From contig JAVJNR010000007.1 of the NCBI GenBank assembly GCA_040217195.1, forward strand, positions 32,001-96,000: a stretch of DNA of 64,000 nucleotides. The letters run 5' to 3'. Numbering within the stretch: position 1 is the stretch's first letter; the number at the start of each line of letters is the position of its first letter. Positions 15,137-29,006 of the stretch are shown one piece after another. A model generated the notes under the pieces. It made no database searches and was not told the origin of the DNA. It saw only the letters and a list, made by a program, of their open reading frames with translations. The DNA is from Leptospiraceae bacterium (lineage in GTDB: Bacteria; Spirochaetota; Leptospiria; Leptospirales; Leptonemataceae). Both the position numbers and the translations under genes were made by a program.

Positions 15137-16543
15137 ATGAGAACATATAGTCAATTTCTGGCCCTGGCCTTGCTGGTAGCTGGATCTTTTATTCTGACAG
15201 ATTGCAAAAAAGATAAGGATGCACTGCCATTCTTCTTGCTGGGCAGCAATGCAGAATCCGCGCCTGGAAGTACTGTTACTGAAGAAACATCTGAAGGAAC
15301 GACGGTAACTACAACCAACGGTGATGTTACCGGCGAAGAGGAATTCGAGTTTCAAACATCTGAGACCATTGACATCAATGTAAATGTCACCGATGATGAT
15401 GGACCGGTGCCGGGTGCCACAGTCATCGTGAATGAAACTGAAACCGATGAAACTCTGTATCAGGGTGTAACCGATGAAGAAGGTAATGTCACAGGAACCA
15501 TTGAAGTAACACCAGAGAATGAAACCGTAACGGTCATCATTCAGGTAGGCGATGAATCCATTGAACAGGAAGTTTCGACTGATAACCTTCAGGAAATTAA
15601 CCGTGAAGTGGTTATCGACGGTTCCACCGGTGATTCCGCGATTGCAGATGCCGACGGAGATGGAATATCAGATTCGGCGGATCATTATCCAGATGATTCC
15701 ACCAGAGCTACGCGAGTTGTGGTGCCCAGCGCTGACGGACAGGTAGTTGCCTACGAAGACCTTTATCCCAGCCCCGGTGATGCAGACTTCAATGACTATG
15801 TCATAAAACTGAATCAAGAACTGGACCTGGATTCAAGCGGAAAGGTAATTAGAATTCGCGGTACCTATCGCCACATTGCTCGCGGCGCTGGTTACAAGCA
15901 TACTTTGCATTTGACTCTTCCCGGTTCTGGAACCGTAACAAGAAAGATCTATTCTTCCACAGGATCTCTTGAAAGCGAAGATAACCAGTCTGGAAATCTA
16001 ACCGGGATTGAGATTCTACCACGTAGCGATGGTACCATTAGCCAGAGTAACACTGTAAATGGACAGACCTTTCAGAGTGGAAAGTACGCTGAAATCGAAA
16101 TCGTGCTCAATGAAGCTGTATCTAGAAGCGAATTAGGACGTGCTCCCTTTGATCTATTCATCAAAGTGATCAATACCGGAAAAGAAGTGCACTTTCCTGG
16201 AAAATACATAGAAGAAGATGGATCCGATACCTATATGGATTCTAACGGATTTCCCTGGGCCCTGTCTGTTCCCAAAGAATGGAACTGGCCTTACGAAAGT
16301 CGTAACATTGCCGATGGGTATCCGGATTTTGAGACCTGGTATTTGTCCATGGGTCAGGAAAAGTCAGATTGGTACAAGAGAGCTCAGGATAGCTACGTAT
16401 TTCCCTATGTAACCAATGGTGCTCTGGCAGCCTATATCCGTGCCGGAATTGGTAATGGATCCCTGCTCTGGTCGATGCTGGCCCTGGGCCTTGCAGGTCT
16501 GCTGGGGTTGTTTCTTTACAGGGAAAAAACCCATCAGAGATAA
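15137..16543 (+). CDS. LruC-domain (DUF4842) lipoprotein, paralogue 1
   Basis: Lipobox ILTDC; acidic Thr/Val-rich Ig-like region; DADGDGISD Ca-binding-like motif; LruC signatures AYEDLYPSPGDADFNDYV, APFDLFI, GFPWALSVP..WNWPYE; C-terminal TM. Confidence 0.88.
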   Translation: MRTYSQFLALALLVAGSFILTDCKKDKDALPFFLLGSNAESAPGSTVTEETSEGTTVTTTNGDVTGEEEFEFQTSETIDINVNVTDDDGPVPGATVIVNETETDETLYQGVTDEEGNVTGTIEVTPENETVTVIIQVGDESIEQEVSTDNLQEINREVVIDGSTGDSAIADADGDGISDSADHYPDDSTRATRVVVPSADGQVVAYEDLYPSPGDADFNDYVIKLNQELDLDSSGKVIRIRGTYRHIARGAGYKHTLHLTLPGSGTVTRKIYSSTGSLESEDNQSGNLTGIEILPRSDGTISQSNTVNGQTFQSGKYAEIEIVLNEAVSRSELGRAPFDLFIKVINTGKEVHFPGKYIEEDGSDTYMDSNGFPWALSVPKEWNWPYESRNIADGYPDFETWYLSMGQEKSDWYKRAQDSYVFPYVTNGALAAYIRAGIGNGSLLWSMLALGLAGLLGLFLYREKTHQR

Positions 16544-16562
16544 TTATTATAGATGATCCTAT

Positions 16563-16587
16563 GGGCCCCATTCCGGGGCCCTTTCTT
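16563..16587 (+). terminator. Rho-independent terminator
   Basis: gggcccc-attcc-ggggccc-tttctt. Confidence 0.75.
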
Positions 16588-16708
16588 CGGTAACGTTAAG
16601 CGACATAATCACTTCCAGGCCTGTCACTCTTTGCAGTAGTACCCGGGTGAATTGAGGTGGTTTTGACGTGGATTTTTGCATTAATCCTAAGAATTTTTGG
16701 TTTTCCTT

Positions 16709-16790
16709 CGTCTTTTTATCGTATGAGAGCTCGATGCCCTATCGATTCGGATCGGGCAAGAAACAAACAGACTGAGCGGGAGGATCTCAA
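16709..16790 (+). promoter_or_regulatory. Conserved upstream element / structured 5' leader, copy 2
   Basis: Same CGTC-N8-GTATGAGAGCTCGAT ... GAGCGGGAGGATCTC-NN-ATG architecture as copy 1. Confidence 0.55.
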
Positions 16791-18209
16791 ATGAGAATAA
16801 ACAGTCAAGTTCTGGCCCTTGCCATTGTAGCAGCCGGATCTTTAATACTGACGGATTGCAAGAAGGACAAGGATGCTTTGCCTTTCTTTTTGCTGGGGGC
16901 TGATGCACAATCCACTCCAGGCACTACAACCACTGGCGAAACCTCTGAGGGAACGACAGTAACCACTACAAACGGTGATGTAACTGGCGAAGAGGATTTT
17001 GAATTTCAGAATTCCGAAACTATCGATGTAAATATTACCGTTGTAGACGATGACGGTGAAGTGGACGGAGCAGTAGTAACCATCAAAGATGGAGACACTG
17101 GAGAAGTGCTCTACCAGGGCGTTACCGGCGAAGACGGTGTAGCCAGCGGTACAATTGAAGTCACTCCGGACAACGAAACATTGAATCTAGTGATCGAAGT
17201 TGGTGATGAAGTCATCGAAGATACCATCGCTACAGAAGATGTTCAGGAAGTTAACCGTGAAGTAACCATCGACGGCTCTGCAAATACAGATACCGGCGTG
17301 GCCGATGCCGATAACGATGGTATCTCAGACGAAAACGATGCTTATCCGAATGATCCGGACCGAGCCACCATAGTGAAGCTACCTTCTGCAGATGGACTGG
17401 TAGTTGCCTACGAAGACCTGTACCCAAGCCCGGGCGATGCAGACTTCAACGACTACGTGGTAAAAGTCTACCATGAAATTGATCTTAACTCAGCGGGTAA
17501 GGTTGTTCGCCTCCGTGGCGTTTACCAGCACCTGGCCAGAGGAGCGGGCTACAAGCATACTCTTCATTTGAATCTTCCTGGAAGCGGCGATGTAAATCAC
17601 AAGCTGTATGATTACCAGGGGAGAGTCGAAGAGGAAATCGACGAATACCGTGCCAGCCTGAACGATATTGAAGTTATGCCTGAGAGCAATAAAACTCTGG
17701 GTCATAAGAACACAGCCAATGGACAATCTTACAAAGAAGGTAAATACTCCGAATTGGAGATTACTTTCAGCGAGCCAATGACCAGAAGCGAACTGGGACG
17801 AGCTCCATTCGATTTGTTCATCAAAGTGATCAATACAGGACATGAAGTACACTTCGCAGGAAAATACTTCGAAGATGACGGATCCGATCGATATCTGGAT
17901 TCCAACGGCTTTCCATGGGCACTTTCCGTTCCAAAACAATGGAACTGGCCTTACGAAAAATCCAGCATCTCAGAAGCATACCCTGACTTCGACACCTGGT
18001 ATCTGTCTCTGGGACAGGAAAAAGCCGATTGGTACAAACGAGCCAACGAGGCACATACTTTCCCCTATGTGACTGAAGGTGCTCTGGCTGCCTATATTCG
18101 GGCCGGTTTTCAGAATGGCTCCATTCTGTGGACATTGCTGGCACTGGGAATCGCAGGCCTTGCAGCACTGTTTTTCTATAGAGAAAAAAGCCACCGAGCC
18201 AACAACTGA
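16791..18209 (+). CDS. LruC-domain (DUF4842) lipoprotein, paralogue 2
   Basis: Collinear tandem paralogue of 15137-16543 with the same motifs and tail. Confidence 0.88.
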   Translation: MRINSQVLALAIVAAGSLILTDCKKDKDALPFFLLGADAQSTPGTTTTGETSEGTTVTTTNGDVTGEEDFEFQNSETIDVNITVVDDDGEVDGAVVTIKDGDTGEVLYQGVTGEDGVASGTIEVTPDNETLNLVIEVGDEVIEDTIATEDVQEVNREVTIDGSANTDTGVADADNDGISDENDAYPNDPDRATIVKLPSADGLVVAYEDLYPSPGDADFNDYVVKVYHEIDLNSAGKVVRLRGVYQHLARGAGYKHTLHLNLPGSGDVNHKLYDYQGRVEEEIDEYRASLNDIEVMPESNKTLGHKNTANGQSYKEGKYSELEITFSEPMTRSELGRAPFDLFIKVINTGHEVHFAGKYFEDDGSDRYLDSNGFPWALSVPKQWNWPYEKSSISEAYPDFDTWYLSLGQEKADWYKRANEAHTFPYVTEGALAAYIRAGFQNGSILWTLLALGIAGLAALFFYREKSHRANN

Positions 18210-20172: not shown

Positions 20173-20928
20173 ATGCATTCAAGATTCTGCTGTCTTACTC
20201 TATTATTCCTACTCGGCCAATGCCAGACTTCCGGGCCAGCTACAACAGGCCCTGCAGTAGCCACGGAACCGGTAGAAATGAGAGATTCCGTTCGCCTGGA
20301 TGTTCCGGCCATAACTCAGCACCGTGAATCACTTTCCGGAGCTGCATCGGTGGAGATGGTATTTCGTTACTGGGGCGAATCGAGATATTCTCAACTGGAA
20401 ATAGCCAGTGCGCTGGTCTGGAAGTTTAGAGAGAACAAAAGATTTTACAAAAGCCATACTCTATTTCAGATTCGCTCCGGCAAGACCGCAGACGAAATGG
20501 ACTGGAGTAGCTATCCTGGCAGCGGAACAGGCTACATTCGCGAATTCCTGGAGCCAATTGCGCCCACGGAAAATCATAGAATCCAGCACCTACCACGAAA
20601 CACCAGAGCCATTCAGGAACTGGAAGAGAAACGATTGGCGCAGCTAAAGGAAAGCGTCAATCGAGGCATTCCCGTTATTGTTCATCAATGGGTGGATTCC
20701 AGTCGCGAGAGCCAGAGATTTCGCGTGGTCACAGGATTCGATTCCAGAAATGGCATGATTTACTTGAATGATCCGGCATCTGGACCTATTAAGATGAAAG
20801 ACTCTGAATTTCTATACCTGTGGCAGGTGGATGAGGTCTGGCTACCCTATAACTCCATAGTTTTCAACAAATCAGATGCCAGACAGATTAAGCAGGGCGA
20901 ATTGAAAGTAGAGCTTGAATTACCCTGA
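20173..20928 (+). CDS. C39-like peptidase lipoprotein, catalytic residues substituted
   Basis: Lipobox LLGQC; paralogue of 24002-24850 but SLSGAASVEM (Cys->Ser) and SQRFRVVTGFD (His->Arg). Confidence 0.8.
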   Translation: MHSRFCCLTLLFLLGQCQTSGPATTGPAVATEPVEMRDSVRLDVPAITQHRESLSGAASVEMVFRYWGESRYSQLEIASALVWKFRENKRFYKSHTLFQIRSGKTADEMDWSSYPGSGTGYIREFLEPIAPTENHRIQHLPRNTRAIQELEEKRLAQLKESVNRGIPVIVHQWVDSSRESQRFRVVTGFDSRNGMIYLNDPASGPIKMKDSEFLYLWQVDEVWLPYNSIVFNKSDARQIKQGELKVELELP

Positions 20929-23950: not shown

Positions 23951-24001
23951 GCCACCAGCTTTTTCTCCTTGCAGCATTGGGGCTGGAGCTATAATCGACG
24001 G

Positions 24002-24850
24002 ATGAATTTAGCAAGGAATACTAACTCTAACAATTCCGTCATTGGCCTGACAATACGCTGCTCATCACTGACGTTAATTTCCATTCCACTGCTGTTCAGT
24101 CTCTTTGCCGGATGCGTTGCCGGTGTATCGGCCCGGCCAGCCTCTGAAACGGATTACTCTGATATTACCACCGGTACCGATTCTGTATCCAGACGAGTCG
24201 TTCGATTAAATGTGCCTCTGGTCCGGCAGCCCCGGGCCAAACTTTGCGGTCCCGCAGTTATAGAAATGGTATTTCGCTTCTGGGGTGAAACTGATTACGA
24301 TCAGTACGAAATTGCCCGGGCCATGGTCCTGTTGTTTCGCAATGAAAGCGGCAGGTTCCAGGACTCTGAGATACTGGTCCAATTACAACGCAATGCCCGG
24401 AATGGGGATGTGGACTGGAGAAAATATCCGGGAACTGGCACCTATCAAATGCGGGAATTCTTGAGCCGTTTTGCTCCAACAGTAAATCCAAGAATCAAAA
24501 ATCTGCCAGAGTCAAGAATTGAATCTGCGAAGATCCGGGATCGATTTTTTCAGGAACTCCAGGGTCATCTGGACTCCGGCTCCCCTGTCATCGTGCACCA
24601 GTGGTATAATGAAAGTAAGAACAGTCAGCACTATCGCCTGGTCACCGGTTATGACGATGTGCGTCGCATTGTGTTTCTCAATGATCCTGCAGACGGCCTT
24701 ATTGAAATGTCCTACGATCGCTTTCTGGGACTATGGAATGTGGAAGAAAACTGGCTGCCCTATAATAACATTGTATTCAATCGATATGCCCCTGGAAGGG
24801 TGGAAAAAGGCAGGCTCGACGTGAATCTAATTCTTTCGGTCGACAATTGA
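24002..24850 (+). CDS. C39-like cysteine peptidase lipoprotein (intact catalytic site)
   Basis: VPLVRQPRAKLCGPAVIEMV (Gln, Cys), HYRLVTGYD (His), FLNDP (Asp); lipobox LFAGC; start uncertain (23969/24002). Confidence 0.85.
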   Translation: MNLARNTNSNNSVIGLTIRCSSLTLISIPLLFSLFAGCVAGVSARPASETDYSDITTGTDSVSRRVVRLNVPLVRQPRAKLCGPAVIEMVFRFWGETDYDQYEIARAMVLLFRNESGRFQDSEILVQLQRNARNGDVDWRKYPGTGTYQMREFLSRFAPTVNPRIKNLPESRIESAKIRDRFFQELQGHLDSGSPVIVHQWYNESKNSQHYRLVTGYDDVRRIVFLNDPADGLIEMSYDRFLGLWNVEENWLPYNNIVFNRYAPGRVEKGRLDVNLILSVDN

Positions 24851-25180: not shown

Positions 25181-25840
25181 CTATTCTACGGATTCCAGCG
25201 TACCAAAAAGTCTCCAGTCCGCACGGTCCAGCTTGAGCTTGATTTTATAACTATTCTTCTCCTCCAGGCCGGCAACAGTTTCGCTCATGGAGTCGTCGTA
25301 TGATACAGTTACAGATTTATTGTAAGGATCGCTGGCACGAAACATGAGTTCCTTTTTTTCTTCATCTTTTTTGGTCAATTCCCCTTCAACGGTGAATGAC
25401 TGCCCCTGAGCGCCGGGGCCTTTTAGAATGATCTGCGCGGGCAATCCAGCAGCTTCCCCATCAGAGACAGGTTTTCCATCTTCCGTGGCTACTTCAATCA
25501 GGTCGCCTCGCATGGTGCCGACGGTATTTCCCTGGGGAACTTTAAACTGGTAGATATATTTCTTTCTGGGTTCCAGGTTACCCGCTTTGCCTGCCAGCTC
25601 TTCCGGCACATACACAAAGATCGTTTTGTTGGATGCCCCGAAAAGTCTCAAATAAGCTCCATCCCCATCCCTTTCAACATTGATCTGCTCCAGAGTAAGA
25701 GTGTGGGTTTTTCCAGAGCCTTTCTCTACAACCTCCAGGGTATCTCCTTCGGAAGTAAGATTGGCCCCGCAGAAGGAAAGGGTGGCAACAGCCGGCAGCA
25801 GAGCCAGCCACATTATTTTTCTTGTAATTCTGTTTCGCAT
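25181..25840 (-). CDS. Hypothetical lipoprotein (two beta-rich, OB-fold-like halves)
   Basis: RBS aggag before MRNRITRK; lipobox TLSFC; similar motifs LEPRKKYIYQFKV and LEEKNSYKIKLKL. Confidence 0.7.
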   Translation of the reverse strand: MRNRITRKIMWLALLPAVATLSFCGANLTSEGDTLEVVEKGSGKTHTLTLEQINVERDGDGAYLRLFGASNKTIFVYVPEELAGKAGNLEPRKKYIYQFKVPQGNTVGTMRGDLIEVATEDGKPVSDGEAAGLPAQIILKGPGAQGQSFTVEGELTKKDEEKKELMFRASDPYNKSVTVSYDDSMSETVAGLEEKNSYKIKLKLDRADWRLFGTLESVE

Positions 25841-26601
25841 AGTTATCTCCTGATTCATGTCGCGATCGACATCCTTTTTTAGTTGGATCCGGTCGGTGTT
25901 AGCGAATGGTTCCAGCAAGGTCTGGTAGTCTACAGTCGGCCAGGAAAGAGTCAACCGGTAAAGGCGCGATTCATCAGAGTTCTCATACATTTATTTCCGG
26001 CCCCTGGCTTGCGCTTGCCAGTGGAAGTAACGTCCGTTATAGGTTACCGGGCGAGATTTAACAGGGTTACCATGATCCTGCAGGCCCCACAGTCATCTCC
26101 TCTCAGGCCTGGTCCAGAATCCCGATATCCGAAAACTACCGGACCAATGGCTCGAAGGCTCGCATTGCGGATTTCTCTGGAGGTGCTGCGATCTTACTAT
26201 CGACTGAGACCGCCAGAGCTTATTAGCAACCAGGATATCCGGGAGCACTGATGATTTCGCCAGGGCCCTATGGGCCTGCATTCCCATCCATCCCCCTCTG
26301 CAATCGGCACAACCCGGACTCCATTTTCCTTTTGATCCAATCCGGGCAAAAGGGTTACCGCTTCGCATTCCAGGGCTCAATCTATAATTCGCTACACCAC
26401 CTGGCAGTCCATTTCCTGAAATTGGCTCGACCGCCTGCACATTTCAAATCAATTCCTTCTTCGGCAGATTCACGGCCCTGGCATGTGCGAATGGGCCCGT
26501 TCGAACTCTGCCTGTGCGCTGAAGAAGGTAATTGAATTGCTCCGGGTAGTCCCGGACCCACCAGTTGCCAGTCAGAATTAAAGGAAGCGGGAGGCGAATG
26601 A

Positions 26602-27489
26602 ATGGAATCCGTAAAATTTGCGGGATTAAACGGTGCAGAGGAAAGTGTATTCAATTCGCAAGACATCGAACATTATTACGAGCAATCCAAAACGGATTAC
26701 AGACTACTGTGGAACTACGATCGATCCCATGCTTTGCACTTTGGATTCTGGACTGAAGATACCAGAACTTTGAGTCAGGCTCTGGAAAATGAAAATAGAA
26801 TGCTGGCCTGCCTTGCAGAAGTTAATAGCGGGGACCACATCCTGGATGCAGGATGCGGTGTAGGCGGTAGTGCAGTCTATCTGGCAAGAAACTATGGATG
26901 CAAGGTTCACGGAGTTTCTCTATGCGAACATCAGCTTGAACGAGCCAGCCAACTTTCCCGCAAATACAACCTCCAGGCGCAACTGAGCTTTGCAAAAGAG
27001 GATTATCACAACCTGCAATGGCCTTCAGAGTCTTTTTCCATTGTCTGGTGTATTGAAAGTTTCTGTCACTCCTGGAACAAGCCCCGATTTCTCCGAGAAG
27101 CCCATCGACTTTTGCGTCCTGGAGGTCAGCTAATCATAGCCGATGGATTTCGTTCCGGTGGAACTCCAGATGAAGAACAGAAATATATGATGCGCTCCTG
27201 GCTGGATGGATGGGCAGTTCCCGACCTTCCAGGAGAATCAGAAATGGAGGTCATGTTAGGTGATGCTGGCTTTGGTCCGGTTCAAATAAAGGATTTCACT
27301 GATTTAGTAATTCGCTCCTCTCGCAGGCTTTACGATTATTCCAGGATTTTTTATCCCGCAGCACGATTCGCATCTATCATGGGGATGCGAAAGGAAATAC
27401 AAAATGCAAACCTGAGGGCGGCCAGAGATCAATATCTGGCCCTGAAAGCCAACCTCTGGAAGTACAGTGTTGTGAGGGCATGGAAATGA
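26602..27489 (+). CDS. Class I SAM-dependent methyltransferase (gamma-tocopherol/sterol-MT-like)
   Basis: IEHYYE, ALHFGFW, motif I ILDAGCGVGGS, VWCIESFCH, EAHRLLRPGGQLIIAD; RBS ggagg. Confidence 0.88.
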   Translation: MESVKFAGLNGAEESVFNSQDIEHYYEQSKTDYRLLWNYDRSHALHFGFWTEDTRTLSQALENENRMLACLAEVNSGDHILDAGCGVGGSAVYLARNYGCKVHGVSLCEHQLERASQLSRKYNLQAQLSFAKEDYHNLQWPSESFSIVWCIESFCHSWNKPRFLREAHRLLRPGGQLIIADGFRSGGTPDEEQKYMMRSWLDGWAVPDLPGESEMEVMLGDAGFGPVQIKDFTDLVIRSSRRLYDYSRIFYPAARFASIMGMRKEIQNANLRAARDQYLALKANLWKYSVVRAWK

Positions 27490-29006
27490 ACAATCCAGCA
27501 ATGGCCGCCGATCTGGCTTCGCAAACAGTACCGGAAAGATGGAGCGACGAACATTTCTCTCCCTATCAGAGCCAGGGAGATCGAATCGCCGATGGAGTCA
27601 TTCAAGAGCTTCTGGCCAGCGGTCAAATCGACGGAATTCATTCCGTTCTGGATTCTATTCAAAGAAACGATGATCCTGTTTCCGAATGTCCTGCAGTATT
27701 ACGAAAGTACTTTGAGGAAACGGCTGTCCTTCCCTCCTTCGCAAACCCTGATGCTCTTCGCGCTGCCCAGGATGTTTTTGCCAGATATGGCCTTCCGATG
27801 ACGCTTAGTTTGTTCTGCCTGGTCCTTCCCGAAGGTTATGCAGCACCTAGACCGGCCCTTGCTCTTTCTTTCACAAGAACCATGTATGACCACACCCGAA
27901 GACGCATTGCAGAAACGGCTCAGTTTCTACTGGACATCGTATCCCCGGATGCCTTTGGACCAGAAGGACGGGCCATTCGGAGTATTCAGAAAGTCAGACT
28001 GATGCATGCAGCGGCCAGATTCTTTGTTAAGCGAAGACCGGAATGGCCGGAAGAATATGGAGATCCCATTTCCCAGGAGGACCTGGCCGCAGTGGCTGGG
28101 GGATTCGGATCCGAAACGATTCGAGGACTGGAGAAGCTGGGTATTAATCTGAATGAATCAGACCGAGAAGCCTATACTCATTGCTGGGCCGTCATGAGCT
28201 CCATGATTGGTCTGGATACCGAACTTGTGGCTCGAGATTTTCAGGATATGGATGAATGTGTTCAATCCTATAAGAGAAGGCAATGGGGACCAAGCAAGGA
28301 AGGAAAGGAACTCACGGCCAGTCTGATGAACATGGTGAACCGTCAGCTGCCACCATTGCTTCGTGGCCTGCCGCAAGCTTATCTGTATTATTTGATGGGA
28401 CCGGAAGGTGCAGAAATACTGGGAGTTCGCAAGAACTTGCAGAGCCGGCTTCTACGACCATTCATCGGTCTGAATTCCTTTATTAATCTGTCCCAGCATA
28501 AATCCAGGCGCCTGGCCCGAATGATTCGTTCTGTGACCCTCGGTATTCTCCAGGGAGTGATGGTCCGTGAAATTGGAGATAGGCCGGTAAAGTTCTATAT
28601 GCAGCCTGCTATTCGCAAAGGCTGGCAAATGGAACCAGTGTATCGTCGGGTTTCCCGCAAGAGCAATCTGGCCTTTCTTCAGGTAAACTTGCAGCCCAAC
28701 AGCAATGAATCTGTTTCAGAATCAGTTCTGTCCCAGGCTTCTACTTCCTATGACCAGGATTGTACTCTAATTGATCTCAGTCGTACAGGTGCCTGTATTC
28801 GTCTGTCCGGGGAATTTCCTATATCTGGCCCCGGTAGCTCAGTATGGTTACAGATTCGCAGCAATGACACAATTCTGAAAATTAGAGCCATAAGCTGTCA
28901 TGTGCATCAAAATCAGGCAGATGGATCTAAGAACATTGGATTTGAATTCGAATCACCGGATCGACGCACTGTTCGAACAATACAAGATTGGCTTGATAAG
29001 CAGTAG
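27486..29006 (+). CDS. MpaB/Lcp-family (DUF2236) haem oxygenase fused to a C-terminal PilZ domain
   Basis: GDRIAD, RRIAETAQF, KVRLMHAAAR, PISQEDLA, YTHCWAVMSSMIG; PilZ motifs RRVSR (28644-28658) and DLSRTG (28773-28790); ATGA overlap with the methyltransferase. Confidence 0.85.
   Translation: MNNPAMAADLASQTVPERWSDEHFSPYQSQGDRIADGVIQELLASGQIDGIHSVLDSIQRNDDPVSECPAVLRKYFEETAVLPSFANPDALRAAQDVFARYGLPMTLSLFCLVLPEGYAAPRPALALSFTRTMYDHTRRRIAETAQFLLDIVSPDAFGPEGRAIRSIQKVRLMHAAARFFVKRRPEWPEEYGDPISQEDLAAVAGGFGSETIRGLEKLGINLNESDREAYTHCWAVMSSMIGLDTELVARDFQDMDECVQSYKRRQWGPSKEGKELTASLMNMVNRQLPPLLRGLPQAYLYYLMGPEGAEILGVRKNLQSRLLRPFIGLNSFINLSQHKSRRLARMIRSVTLGILQGVMVREIGDRPVKFYMQPAIRKGWQMEPVYRRVSRKSNLAFLQVNLQPNSNESVSESVLSQASTSYDQDCTLIDLSRTGACIRLSGEFPISGPGSSVWLQIRSNDTILKIRAISCHVHQNQADGSKNIGFEFESPDRRTVRTIQDWLDKQ

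Follow-up and report, generated by a model that had tools for sequence, protein, structure and literature searches.

What does a predicted haem oxygenase domain do when it is joined to a putative receptor for cyclic diguanosine monophosphate (c-di-GMP) and encoded together with a methyltransferase? The question is raised by two overlapping genes in a 64,000-nucleotide stretch of DNA from a Leptospiraceae bacterium (GenBank assembly GCA_040217195.1, contig JAVJNR010000007.1, positions 32,001 to 96,000 of the forward strand; hereafter the window, in whose coordinates positions are given). The first gene (26602..27489, + strand) was assigned by open reading frame (ORF) call, Pfam, NCBIfam and a structure-database match to a 295-residue S-adenosylmethionine-dependent methyltransferase of the class I small-molecule type. 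The second (27486..29006, + strand), defined by ORF call, Pfam, AlphaFold and fold search, encodes a 506-residue fusion of an Lcp/MpaB-like domain with a PilZ domain. Our preferred reading, drawn from sequence comparison and a structural model, is that the fusion would be a c-di-GMP-switched haem oxygenase, and that a single hydrophobic, probably prenylated, molecule is modified successively by this enzyme and the methyltransferase. We give this reading an even chance of being correct.

Domain organization and fold of the fusion protein

An original prediction, made from the sequence alone, had described an Lcp/MpaB domain fused in frame to PilZ, and Pfam, AlphaFold and fold search agree on this architecture. 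Pfam places MPAB_Lcp_cat (PF09995, DUF2236) at residues 131-321 (E 1.4e-18; 68.2 bits against a cut-off of 23) and PilZ (PF07238) at residues 424-503 (E 2.2e-7; 31.6 bits against a cut-off of 22.5). The short motifs named in that prediction, RRIAETAQF, KVRLMHAAAR, RRVSR (residues 387-391) and DLSRTG (430-435), are all present. AlphaFold modeling, which had been proposed alongside it, gives an Lcp fold followed by a PilZ fold, with a predicted local distance difference test (pLDDT) score of 87.8 from 106 sequences. The Lcp-like globin domain with its N- and C-terminal caps, a predicted b-haem binder, spans residues 19-383 (27540..28634, + strand; AlphaFold, fold search and profile alignment), and the PilZ domain spans residues 384-506 (28635..29003, + strand; Pfam, AlphaFold and fold search). 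Model confidence is low at residues 385-391 and in the linker.

The fold search matched the model to LcpK30 (PDB 5o1l, 5o1m) with Z 35.9 and a root-mean-square deviation (rmsd) of 3.2 over 348 residues, and to t-anethole oxygenase (8s1j) with Z 20.6 and rmsd 3.2 over 255 residues. For the PilZ part the best match was MotI (Z 12.1, rmsd 2.6, 102 residues); MapZ (5xly; Z 11.3, rmsd 2.7, 101 residues) was tied with many PilZ proteins. When a profile of the subfamily was run against solved structures, LcpK30 was the sole match and t-anethole oxygenase was not found. An assembly artefact was rejected, the fusion being intact in three further genomes (G002, G005, G006) and in the metagenome protein cluster P0004. 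The N-terminus shows no hydrophobic stretch, as judged by inspection and a hydropathy scan only, and the PilZ domain would place the fusion protein in the cytoplasm.

The active site compared with LcpK30

Active-site counts refer to a 106-row alignment of subfamily relatives. His174 (28005..28007, + strand) is invariant in all 106 rows and aligns with His198, the proximal haem ligand of LcpK30. The segment R140-I-A-E143-T144 (27903..27917, + strand) corresponds to LcpK30 Arg164, Lys167 and Thr168, with Glu at the Lys167 position in the fusion and in 101 of 106 rows, and Arg171 and Arg178 correspond to Arg195 and Arg202. Equivalents of Arg164, Thr168, Arg195, Arg202 and His198 are kept in 104-106 of the 106 aligned relatives. 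Pro123 (27852..27854, + strand) occupies the position of the LcpK30 catalytic base Glu148, where 85 of 106 rows have Gly.

In LcpK30, Glu148 is the proposed base, its loss leaving 2-20% activity, and Lys167 is a switchable distal ligand that is 59% conserved among Lcps (passages of PMC5522427). Judged by the alignment, the fusion falls outside the classical Lcps: it keeps the haem His and the Arg and Thr residues, and has Pro for Glu148 and Glu for Lys167. Glu143 may have taken over a catalytic or ligating role. The original prediction missed these two replacements; its statement that rubber cleavage is unlikely is supported.

The subfamily profile reaches residue 402 of the 407 in LcpK30, aligned to the fusion at the F370 motif, and the RxxxR motif of the PilZ domain starts ~13-17 residues past the end of the C-terminal cap. 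In LcpK30 the cap helices Z5 and Z6 move between closed and open forms (PMC5522427, in part). Because RxxxR begins just after the cap that contains the moving Z5 and Z6, its closeness to a mobile cap would, by analogy, provide a plausible route for allostery.

The PilZ domain and its c-di-GMP motifs

Canonical c-di-GMP-binding PilZ domains are defined by RxxxR and [D/N]xSxxG (passages of PMC11800159 and PMC12943098). In the fusion these are R387-R391 (28644..28658, + strand; alignment and AlphaFold), in the low-confidence loop of the model, and D430-G435 (28773..28790, + strand; alignment). RxxxR is kept in seven of seven aligned fusions, including three (metagenome clusters P0008, P0040 and P0041) that are just 32-39% identical to the fusion in the oxygenase part, and the second motif is canonical in six of seven. 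The same genome has 26 GGDEF and 10 PilZ matches.

Four orthologues share 73-84% identity in the oxygenase part and 37-42% in the PilZ domain. The nonsynonymous distance (dN) is ~0.6 in PilZ versus 0.12-0.14 in the oxygenase, i.e. four to five times faster change, with synonymous sites close to saturated. Even so, the five motif residues never vary, whereas 20 of the 117 other PilZ positions are invariant, and chance motifs were rejected because both are invariant despite this divergence. The pattern suggests that the c-di-GMP motifs are selectively kept and that the PilZ domain looks alive, with binding predicted. A C-terminal domain with both c-di-GMP motifs, as originally proposed, is thus recovered by Pfam, fold search and conservation alike.

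The fast change of the PilZ domain could also mean that it is the passenger of an old fusion and no longer relevant. In keeping with this, 107 of the best 150 relatives, drawn from 1.84 billion representatives, are 430 residues or shorter and have no room for PilZ. However, invariance of both motifs at near-saturated synonymous distance, and the retention of RxxxR in every aligned fusion, make a passenger role highly improbable.

Fusions and neighbors in the wider Lcp-like subfamily

The other 43 of the best 150 relatives are longer, and all were scanned with Pfam. Class II terpene cyclase domains occur in 20, DUF2071 in five and PilZ in four; REC, STAS, Ser/Thr kinase, Pyr4-type cyclase, TonB plug, DyP, a flavin adenine dinucleotide-binding domain and DUF5995 appear once each, and six have no second family. 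With the Pyr4-type case, cyclase fusions total 21 of the best 150 relatives and are the commonest fusion. GGDEF, EAL, histidine kinase and methyl-accepting chemotaxis protein (MCP) domains were found in none of the 43. The profile as a whole matched 3,960 clusters at 50% identity, including more distant family members. Since relatives are fused to terpene cyclases, an isoprenoid substrate is indicated, and the isoprenoid connection drawn in the original prediction is visible in these fusions.

The class II cyclase fusions are proteins of ~1,000 residues that join a DxDD cyclase and an Lcp-like domain in either order (P0048, P0061, P0063, P0134 and 16 more; L054, L057, L083, L097, L104 and L113); in P0134 the oxygenase comes first and the cyclase second. 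A DxDD-type motif is present in 17 of the 20 fused cyclases and DCTAE in none, motifs that we take to be indicative of cyclase class. On these counts we set aside a squalene-epoxidase reading, in which the oxygenase would feed an oxidosqualene cyclase. A single literature search aimed at the cyclase-oxygenase fusions returned no paper. Pyr4-linked members may be epoxidases; passages of PMC13307353 that bear on such epoxidation do not mention MpaB.

Gene neighborhoods extend the picture. Across 80 metagenome loci, a class II cyclase domain is present in ten (nine in the same frame) and a Pyr4-like gene lies directly downstream in eight. The oxygenase is matched in 34 of 75 Leptospiraceae-type genomes; the 29 best matches among these were examined, and all 29 have a Pyr4-like gene directly downstream. 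Loci L042:8068-16632, L043:3062-11682 and L149-L177 comprise genes for a FadL-like porin, the Lcp-like oxygenase and a Pyr4-like membrane protein, together with that of a STAND Ser/Thr kinase containing GAF and SpoIIE domains. Clusters of STAND-type kinases lie near 15 of the 80 metagenome loci and histidine kinase clusters near 13; both are large families, counted without a background comparison. At one further locus (G024; L024:1-2559) an Lcp-like gene is followed by an ORF that by eye resembles a fusion of an adenylate cyclase with a ferredoxin-reductase-like domain. Taken together, the fusions and neighbors of the subfamily point to a putative prenyl chemistry wired to signaling.

Could the haem domain be a sensor? 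Its ligand would then be O2, some other gas or a lipid; PilZ would relay the state of the haem domain to a partner protein, and the fusion would integrate haem status with c-di-GMP. Globin-coupled sensors consist of a globin joined to a GGDEF, EAL, histidine kinase or MCP output. None of these outputs is fused to the haem domain here, where only PilZ is attached, and the long relatives carry cyclases and input domains. The core of LcpK30 does resemble globin-coupled sensors (PMC5522427, in part), Glu148 is missing across the subfamily, and STAND-type and histidine kinases are frequent neighbors. However, the Arg164, Thr168, Arg195 and Arg202 equivalents are kept in almost every row, and the kinase counts carry the limit stated above. 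Because the fused signaling domains are mostly inputs (PilZ four, REC one, STAS one), a regulated enzyme is favored over a sensor. The haem/O2 sensor, an alternative in the original prediction, is weakened accordingly, and we regard it as unlikely.

The methyltransferase and its coupling to Lcp-like genes

The 295-residue protein matches Methyltransf_11 (E 2e-22). Its closest solved structures, AtmM, RebM, MitM, TleD and SpnF (TM-scores 0.68-0.77 by query, 20-30% identity), are tailoring methyltransferases too distant to give its substrate or acceptor atom. Among NCBIfam equivalogs, which include cyclopropane fatty acid synthase, UbiE, UbiG and MenG, the best 25 of 59 families all score far below their cut-offs. 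Sterol C24-methyltransferases are marked by a C-terminal Sterol_MT_C domain, which is absent among the 21 Pfam families matched at E up to 1. Homologues at 38-42% identity and one Atlas cluster bear names of the gamma-tocopherol methyltransferase type (tocopherol O-methyltransferase, for example), all of them automatic.

A search of 151 Leptospirales genomes found 17 copies of this methyltransferase family in 13 genomes. For thirteen of these, the next gene downstream on the same strand is Lcp-like: it is the PilZ fusion in four cases and a member of a second Lcp-like clade, 24% identical and without PilZ, in nine. The second clade is followed by a cyclic nucleotide monophosphate (cNMP)-binding/methyltransferase-like gene in all seven loci where the downstream gene was read. 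The pairing in G467 was predicted beforehand and then found; that in G019 was read across overlapping contig ends. Within the 42 genomes of the family, all 11 that have the methyltransferase also hold an Lcp-like gene, which is present in 13 overall. The methyltransferase link is real within Leptospirales, not general. The partnership suggested in the original prediction stands for that order and is rare outside it.

A second pair in this genome (L034:5534-11758; G000:C10, ~301500-307800) combines a methyltransferase with an Lcp-like oxygenase without PilZ. It is followed by a cNMP-binding/Methyltransf_20 fusion and then a P450, with a geranylgeranyl-reductase-family gene facing. The best NCBIfam matches of the P450 are terpenoid oxygenases, and both the P450 and the geranylgeranyl-reductase-family matches are below cut-offs. 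The two methyltransferases of the genome fall in separate branches, and the core of the second pair recurs in G004, G005, G016, G019, G425 and G467. In genus g19 (L138, L141, L142 and L187), the methyltransferase family is found directly upstream of a STAND Ser/Thr kinase of ~1,770 residues (length from G024), of the type that flanks Lcp-like genes elsewhere.

At the junction of the two genes (27474..27489, + strand), GAGGG at 27474-27478 sits 7 nucleotides before the fusion start at 27486, the in-frame ATG at 27480 could serve as an alternative start, and the genes overlap at ATGA (27486-27489), as noticed originally. The junctions of orthologues are ATGA or GTGA. This arrangement suggests translational coupling of the two genes. 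Promoter and terminator scans of the operon gave signals not above those of shuffled sequence, and in a single run of RNA data two contigs matched the bactofilin region further downstream and none matched the operon, which is uninformative either way.

Such coupling raises a further possibility, that the oxygenase is always active and that PilZ with c-di-GMP acts instead on the co-translated methyltransferase, or brings the enzyme to a partner or to a particular site in the cell, as in the MapZ-CheR1 pair. The PilZ domain is as close to MapZ as to other PilZ proteins, the operon genes overlap and co-occur, the PilZ surface evolves quickly away from the motifs, and the linker is modeled with low confidence. 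However, the tie of MapZ with many PilZ proteins takes weight from that match, and CheR1 is a different kind of methyltransferase from that of the operon. The same methyltransferase family also stands beside the nine PilZ-less Lcp-like genes, and a fast-changing surface is ill-suited to a fixed protein partner. We therefore find this arrangement somewhat unlikely.

Prenyl supply and the nature of the substrate

The genome encodes two trans-prenyl synthases and, on other contigs, four UbiA-family proteins: a haem O synthase, an MqnP-like protein, a decaprenyl-phosphate phosphoribosyltransferase-like protein and an EboC-like protein. The MqnP-like gene is two genes from UbiX. An ebo-like cluster elsewhere in the genome (L050:2-3695) contains an EboA domain gene and an EboC-like prenyltransferase. 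Because two trans-prenyl synthases and the UbiA-family set are present and cyclases were not found, a menaquinone-type quinone would be the likeliest home-made prenyl substrate, with an imported isoprenoid as the alternative.

The substrate might instead be an imported non-isoprenoid alkene that the pair degrades or detoxifies, c-di-GMP tying this activity to surface-attached growth; examples would be phenol O-methylation followed by side-chain cleavage of the t-anethole oxygenase type, or a change to an unsaturated fatty acid. t-Anethole oxygenase shares the fold, Nro1 of Gordonia, from the same family, attacks nitrile rubber (passages of PMC12724181), the solved methyltransferases closest to that of the operon methylate O or N, and searches of this genome gave neither a terpene cyclase nor a squalene synthase. 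On the other hand, the model is far closer to LcpK30, which the subfamily profile finds alone among solved structures, and cyclase fusions are the commonest in the subfamily. The second methyltransferase-oxygenase pair, moreover, adjoins the P450 and geranylgeranyl-reductase-family genes, with the below-cut-off matches described above. In our view a non-isoprenoid alkene is distinctly unlikely.

Proposed mechanism

In the preferred reading, haem and O2 would bind at His174 as in LcpK30, and Glu143 would replace the missing Glu148 as base or act as a switchable ligand. The fusion would then oxidize a C=C bond of its substrate, possibly cleaving it, like Lcp and MpaB, to give an aldehyde or a ketone. 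Binding of c-di-GMP would order the RxxxR loop and thereby open or shut the substrate channel; either direction is compatible with the proposal. The substrate would be a prenyl-bearing small molecule or lipid that is also modified by the methyltransferase.

Several observations weigh against this proposal. The catalytic Glu148 is absent from the fusion, and the distant fusion P0008 has a non-canonical second motif, EVCEQG, with a PilZ score below the cut-off. P0176, the relative fused to a Ser/Thr kinase, fits a sensor. The isoprenoid link is borrowed from relatives that are ~30-37% identical. The genome, which is 94% complete, gave no match to a class II cyclase, Pyr4-type cyclase, squalene or phytoene synthase or AtuA, in searches where the Pyr4 and AtuA controls were also silent, and no prenyltransferase was found among ten genes scanned at and around the locus. 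Four of the 17 Leptospirales methyltransferase copies are not beside an Lcp-like gene, three preceding a STAND Ser/Thr kinase and one standing alone. A close methyltransferase lies beside the oxygenase in only two of the 80 metagenome loci, both from this genus, and the methyltransferase-neighbor counts are those of loci other than P0008, P0040 and P0041. Finally, kin genomes are not independent samples.

A broader claim, which we consider doubtful, is that the fusion would be the first example of a haem oxygenase under direct c-di-GMP gating, and would represent one form of a widespread, undescribed module that activates a prenyl chain and then oxidizes it to make a small terpenoid signal. 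The partner of the oxygenase would be a cation-starting enzyme: some bacteria would use a class II cyclase of the DxDD kind, Leptospira-like genomes a Pyr4-type cyclase, and the present genome a C-methyltransferase resembling TleD. The output of the module would be set by second messengers (PilZ here, the cNMP-binding neighbor at the second copy in this genome, REC or STAS in other cases), with STAND kinases as its readers. The partners look complementary, this genome having the methyltransferase and no Pyr4 match, and genera g22 and g23 having Pyr4 neighbors and, over 46 genomes searched, no methyltransferase match.

Distribution and origin of the fusion

The full-length fusion is present in four of the seven genomes of this Leptonemataceae genus (G000, G002, G005 and G006) and absent from the other genomes among 42 of the family and 401 sampled from the phylum; for G003, which is 78% complete, its presence is undecided. 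Both operon genes are missing from the same site in G001 and G004, which hold there an HD-GYP-type gene with, by eye, a PAS-like N-terminus (G004, L183:2978-4045; G001, L184:509-1618). The occurrence of a c-di-GMP gene at this site may be chance.

Four metagenome protein clusters contain the fusion, P0004 (63% identical) and the distant P0008, P0040 and P0041, and cluster members are named Leptospiraceae or Spirochaetaceae bacterium. In trees built on the oxygenase part, cut before RxxxR with PilZ left out, the seven aligned fusions form one branch, with FastTree support of 0.987 (191 rows) and, in a quick IQ-TREE run, an SH-like approximate likelihood ratio test value of 91 (59 rows). The search profile held five of the seven fusions and the best 150 relatives were viewed, so that independent fusions elsewhere may be missed. 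A second homologue search with a seven-row alignment returned the same 39 proteins, and a contig search with the fusion protein as single query returned one locus. The ESM Atlas gave no usable match for the fusion, and plasmid searches gave distant matches only.

Surroundings of the operon

Divergent from the operon lies a 269-residue ORF without a Pfam match (25181-25990), which is not at the same site in G002, G005, G004 or G001. Two genes for C39-like peptidases are nearby (20173-20928 and 23969-24850), the second of which shifts position relative to the operon between genomes. Further away are two tandem paralogues (15137-18209), each with a lipoprotein-like N-terminus; the first, which was scanned, has a DUF4842 domain. 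A carboxyltransferase gene 7 kb upstream was considered as a link to acyclic terpene catabolism; AtuA had no match in the genome, with the AtuA control also silent, and the gene was left unlinked.

Comparison with known systems

The statement in the original prediction that no MpaB-PilZ fusion had been described is half sustained. Literature searches for DUF2236 with PilZ and for PilZ with MpaB, mostly outside subscription journals, returned no paper and no study of the fusion. The architecture itself is listed: supplementary file 1 of PMC11800159 has an MPAB_Lcp_cat+PilZ cluster, MBI40048.1, of three genes, all from Spirochaetota, and one JGI protein bears both domain names, assigned automatically. 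The MBI40048.1 entry has the same architecture as our fusion and is a table row giving no function, partner or distant members, and the words 'MpaB' and 'oxygenase' are absent from the main text of PMC11800159. The fusion is thus catalogued but appears never to have been studied, and it is a variant of a known enzyme family. As a soluble-looking protein with its own predicted on/off ligand, it would offer a practical entry to a large Lcp-like group whose active site differs (Glu148 replaced by Gly or Pro, Lys167 by Glu), a subfamily tied to terpene cyclases and signaling kinases and present in many Leptospiraceae-type genomes.

LcpK30 shares with the fusion the whole fold with both caps and the equivalents of His198, Arg164, Thr168, Arg195 and Arg202 (PMC5522427, in part). 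It differs in having Glu148 where the fusion has Pro, Lys167 where the fusion has Glu, and no PilZ after the C-terminal cap, and the two are 23-25% identical in structural alignments. Fungal MpaB, of the same Pfam family, is intracellular and cleaves the terminal olefin of a farnesyl chain, and its pathway includes the methyltransferase PgMpaG (passages of PMC6900556). Compared without alignment, MpaB is fungal, lacks PilZ and is encoded with a prenyltransferase and other pathway genes, whereas the operon described here has no prenyltransferase. The parallel with the mycophenolate pathway drawn in the original prediction is weakened by this difference and by the lack of the methyltransferase beside most relatives. 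t-Anethole oxygenase (8s1j) and Gordonia Nro1 are bacterial enzymes of the family with b-haem and activity on C=C bonds (PMC12724181, in part), but are more distant, shorter and without a regulatory domain.

The PilZ side of the fusion has its counterparts in BcsA, Alg44 and MapZ, which have the canonical PilZ fold with RxxxR and DxSxxG as in the fusion. BcsA and Alg44 control polysaccharide synthesis, and MapZ acts on the chemotaxis methyltransferase CheR1. More generally, c-di-GMP acts through PilZ on polysaccharide synthases, motors and regulators, and our literature searches found no PilZ-controlled haem oxygenase. If true, direct PilZ control of a haem oxygenase would extend c-di-GMP signaling to oxidative small-molecule or lipid chemistry.

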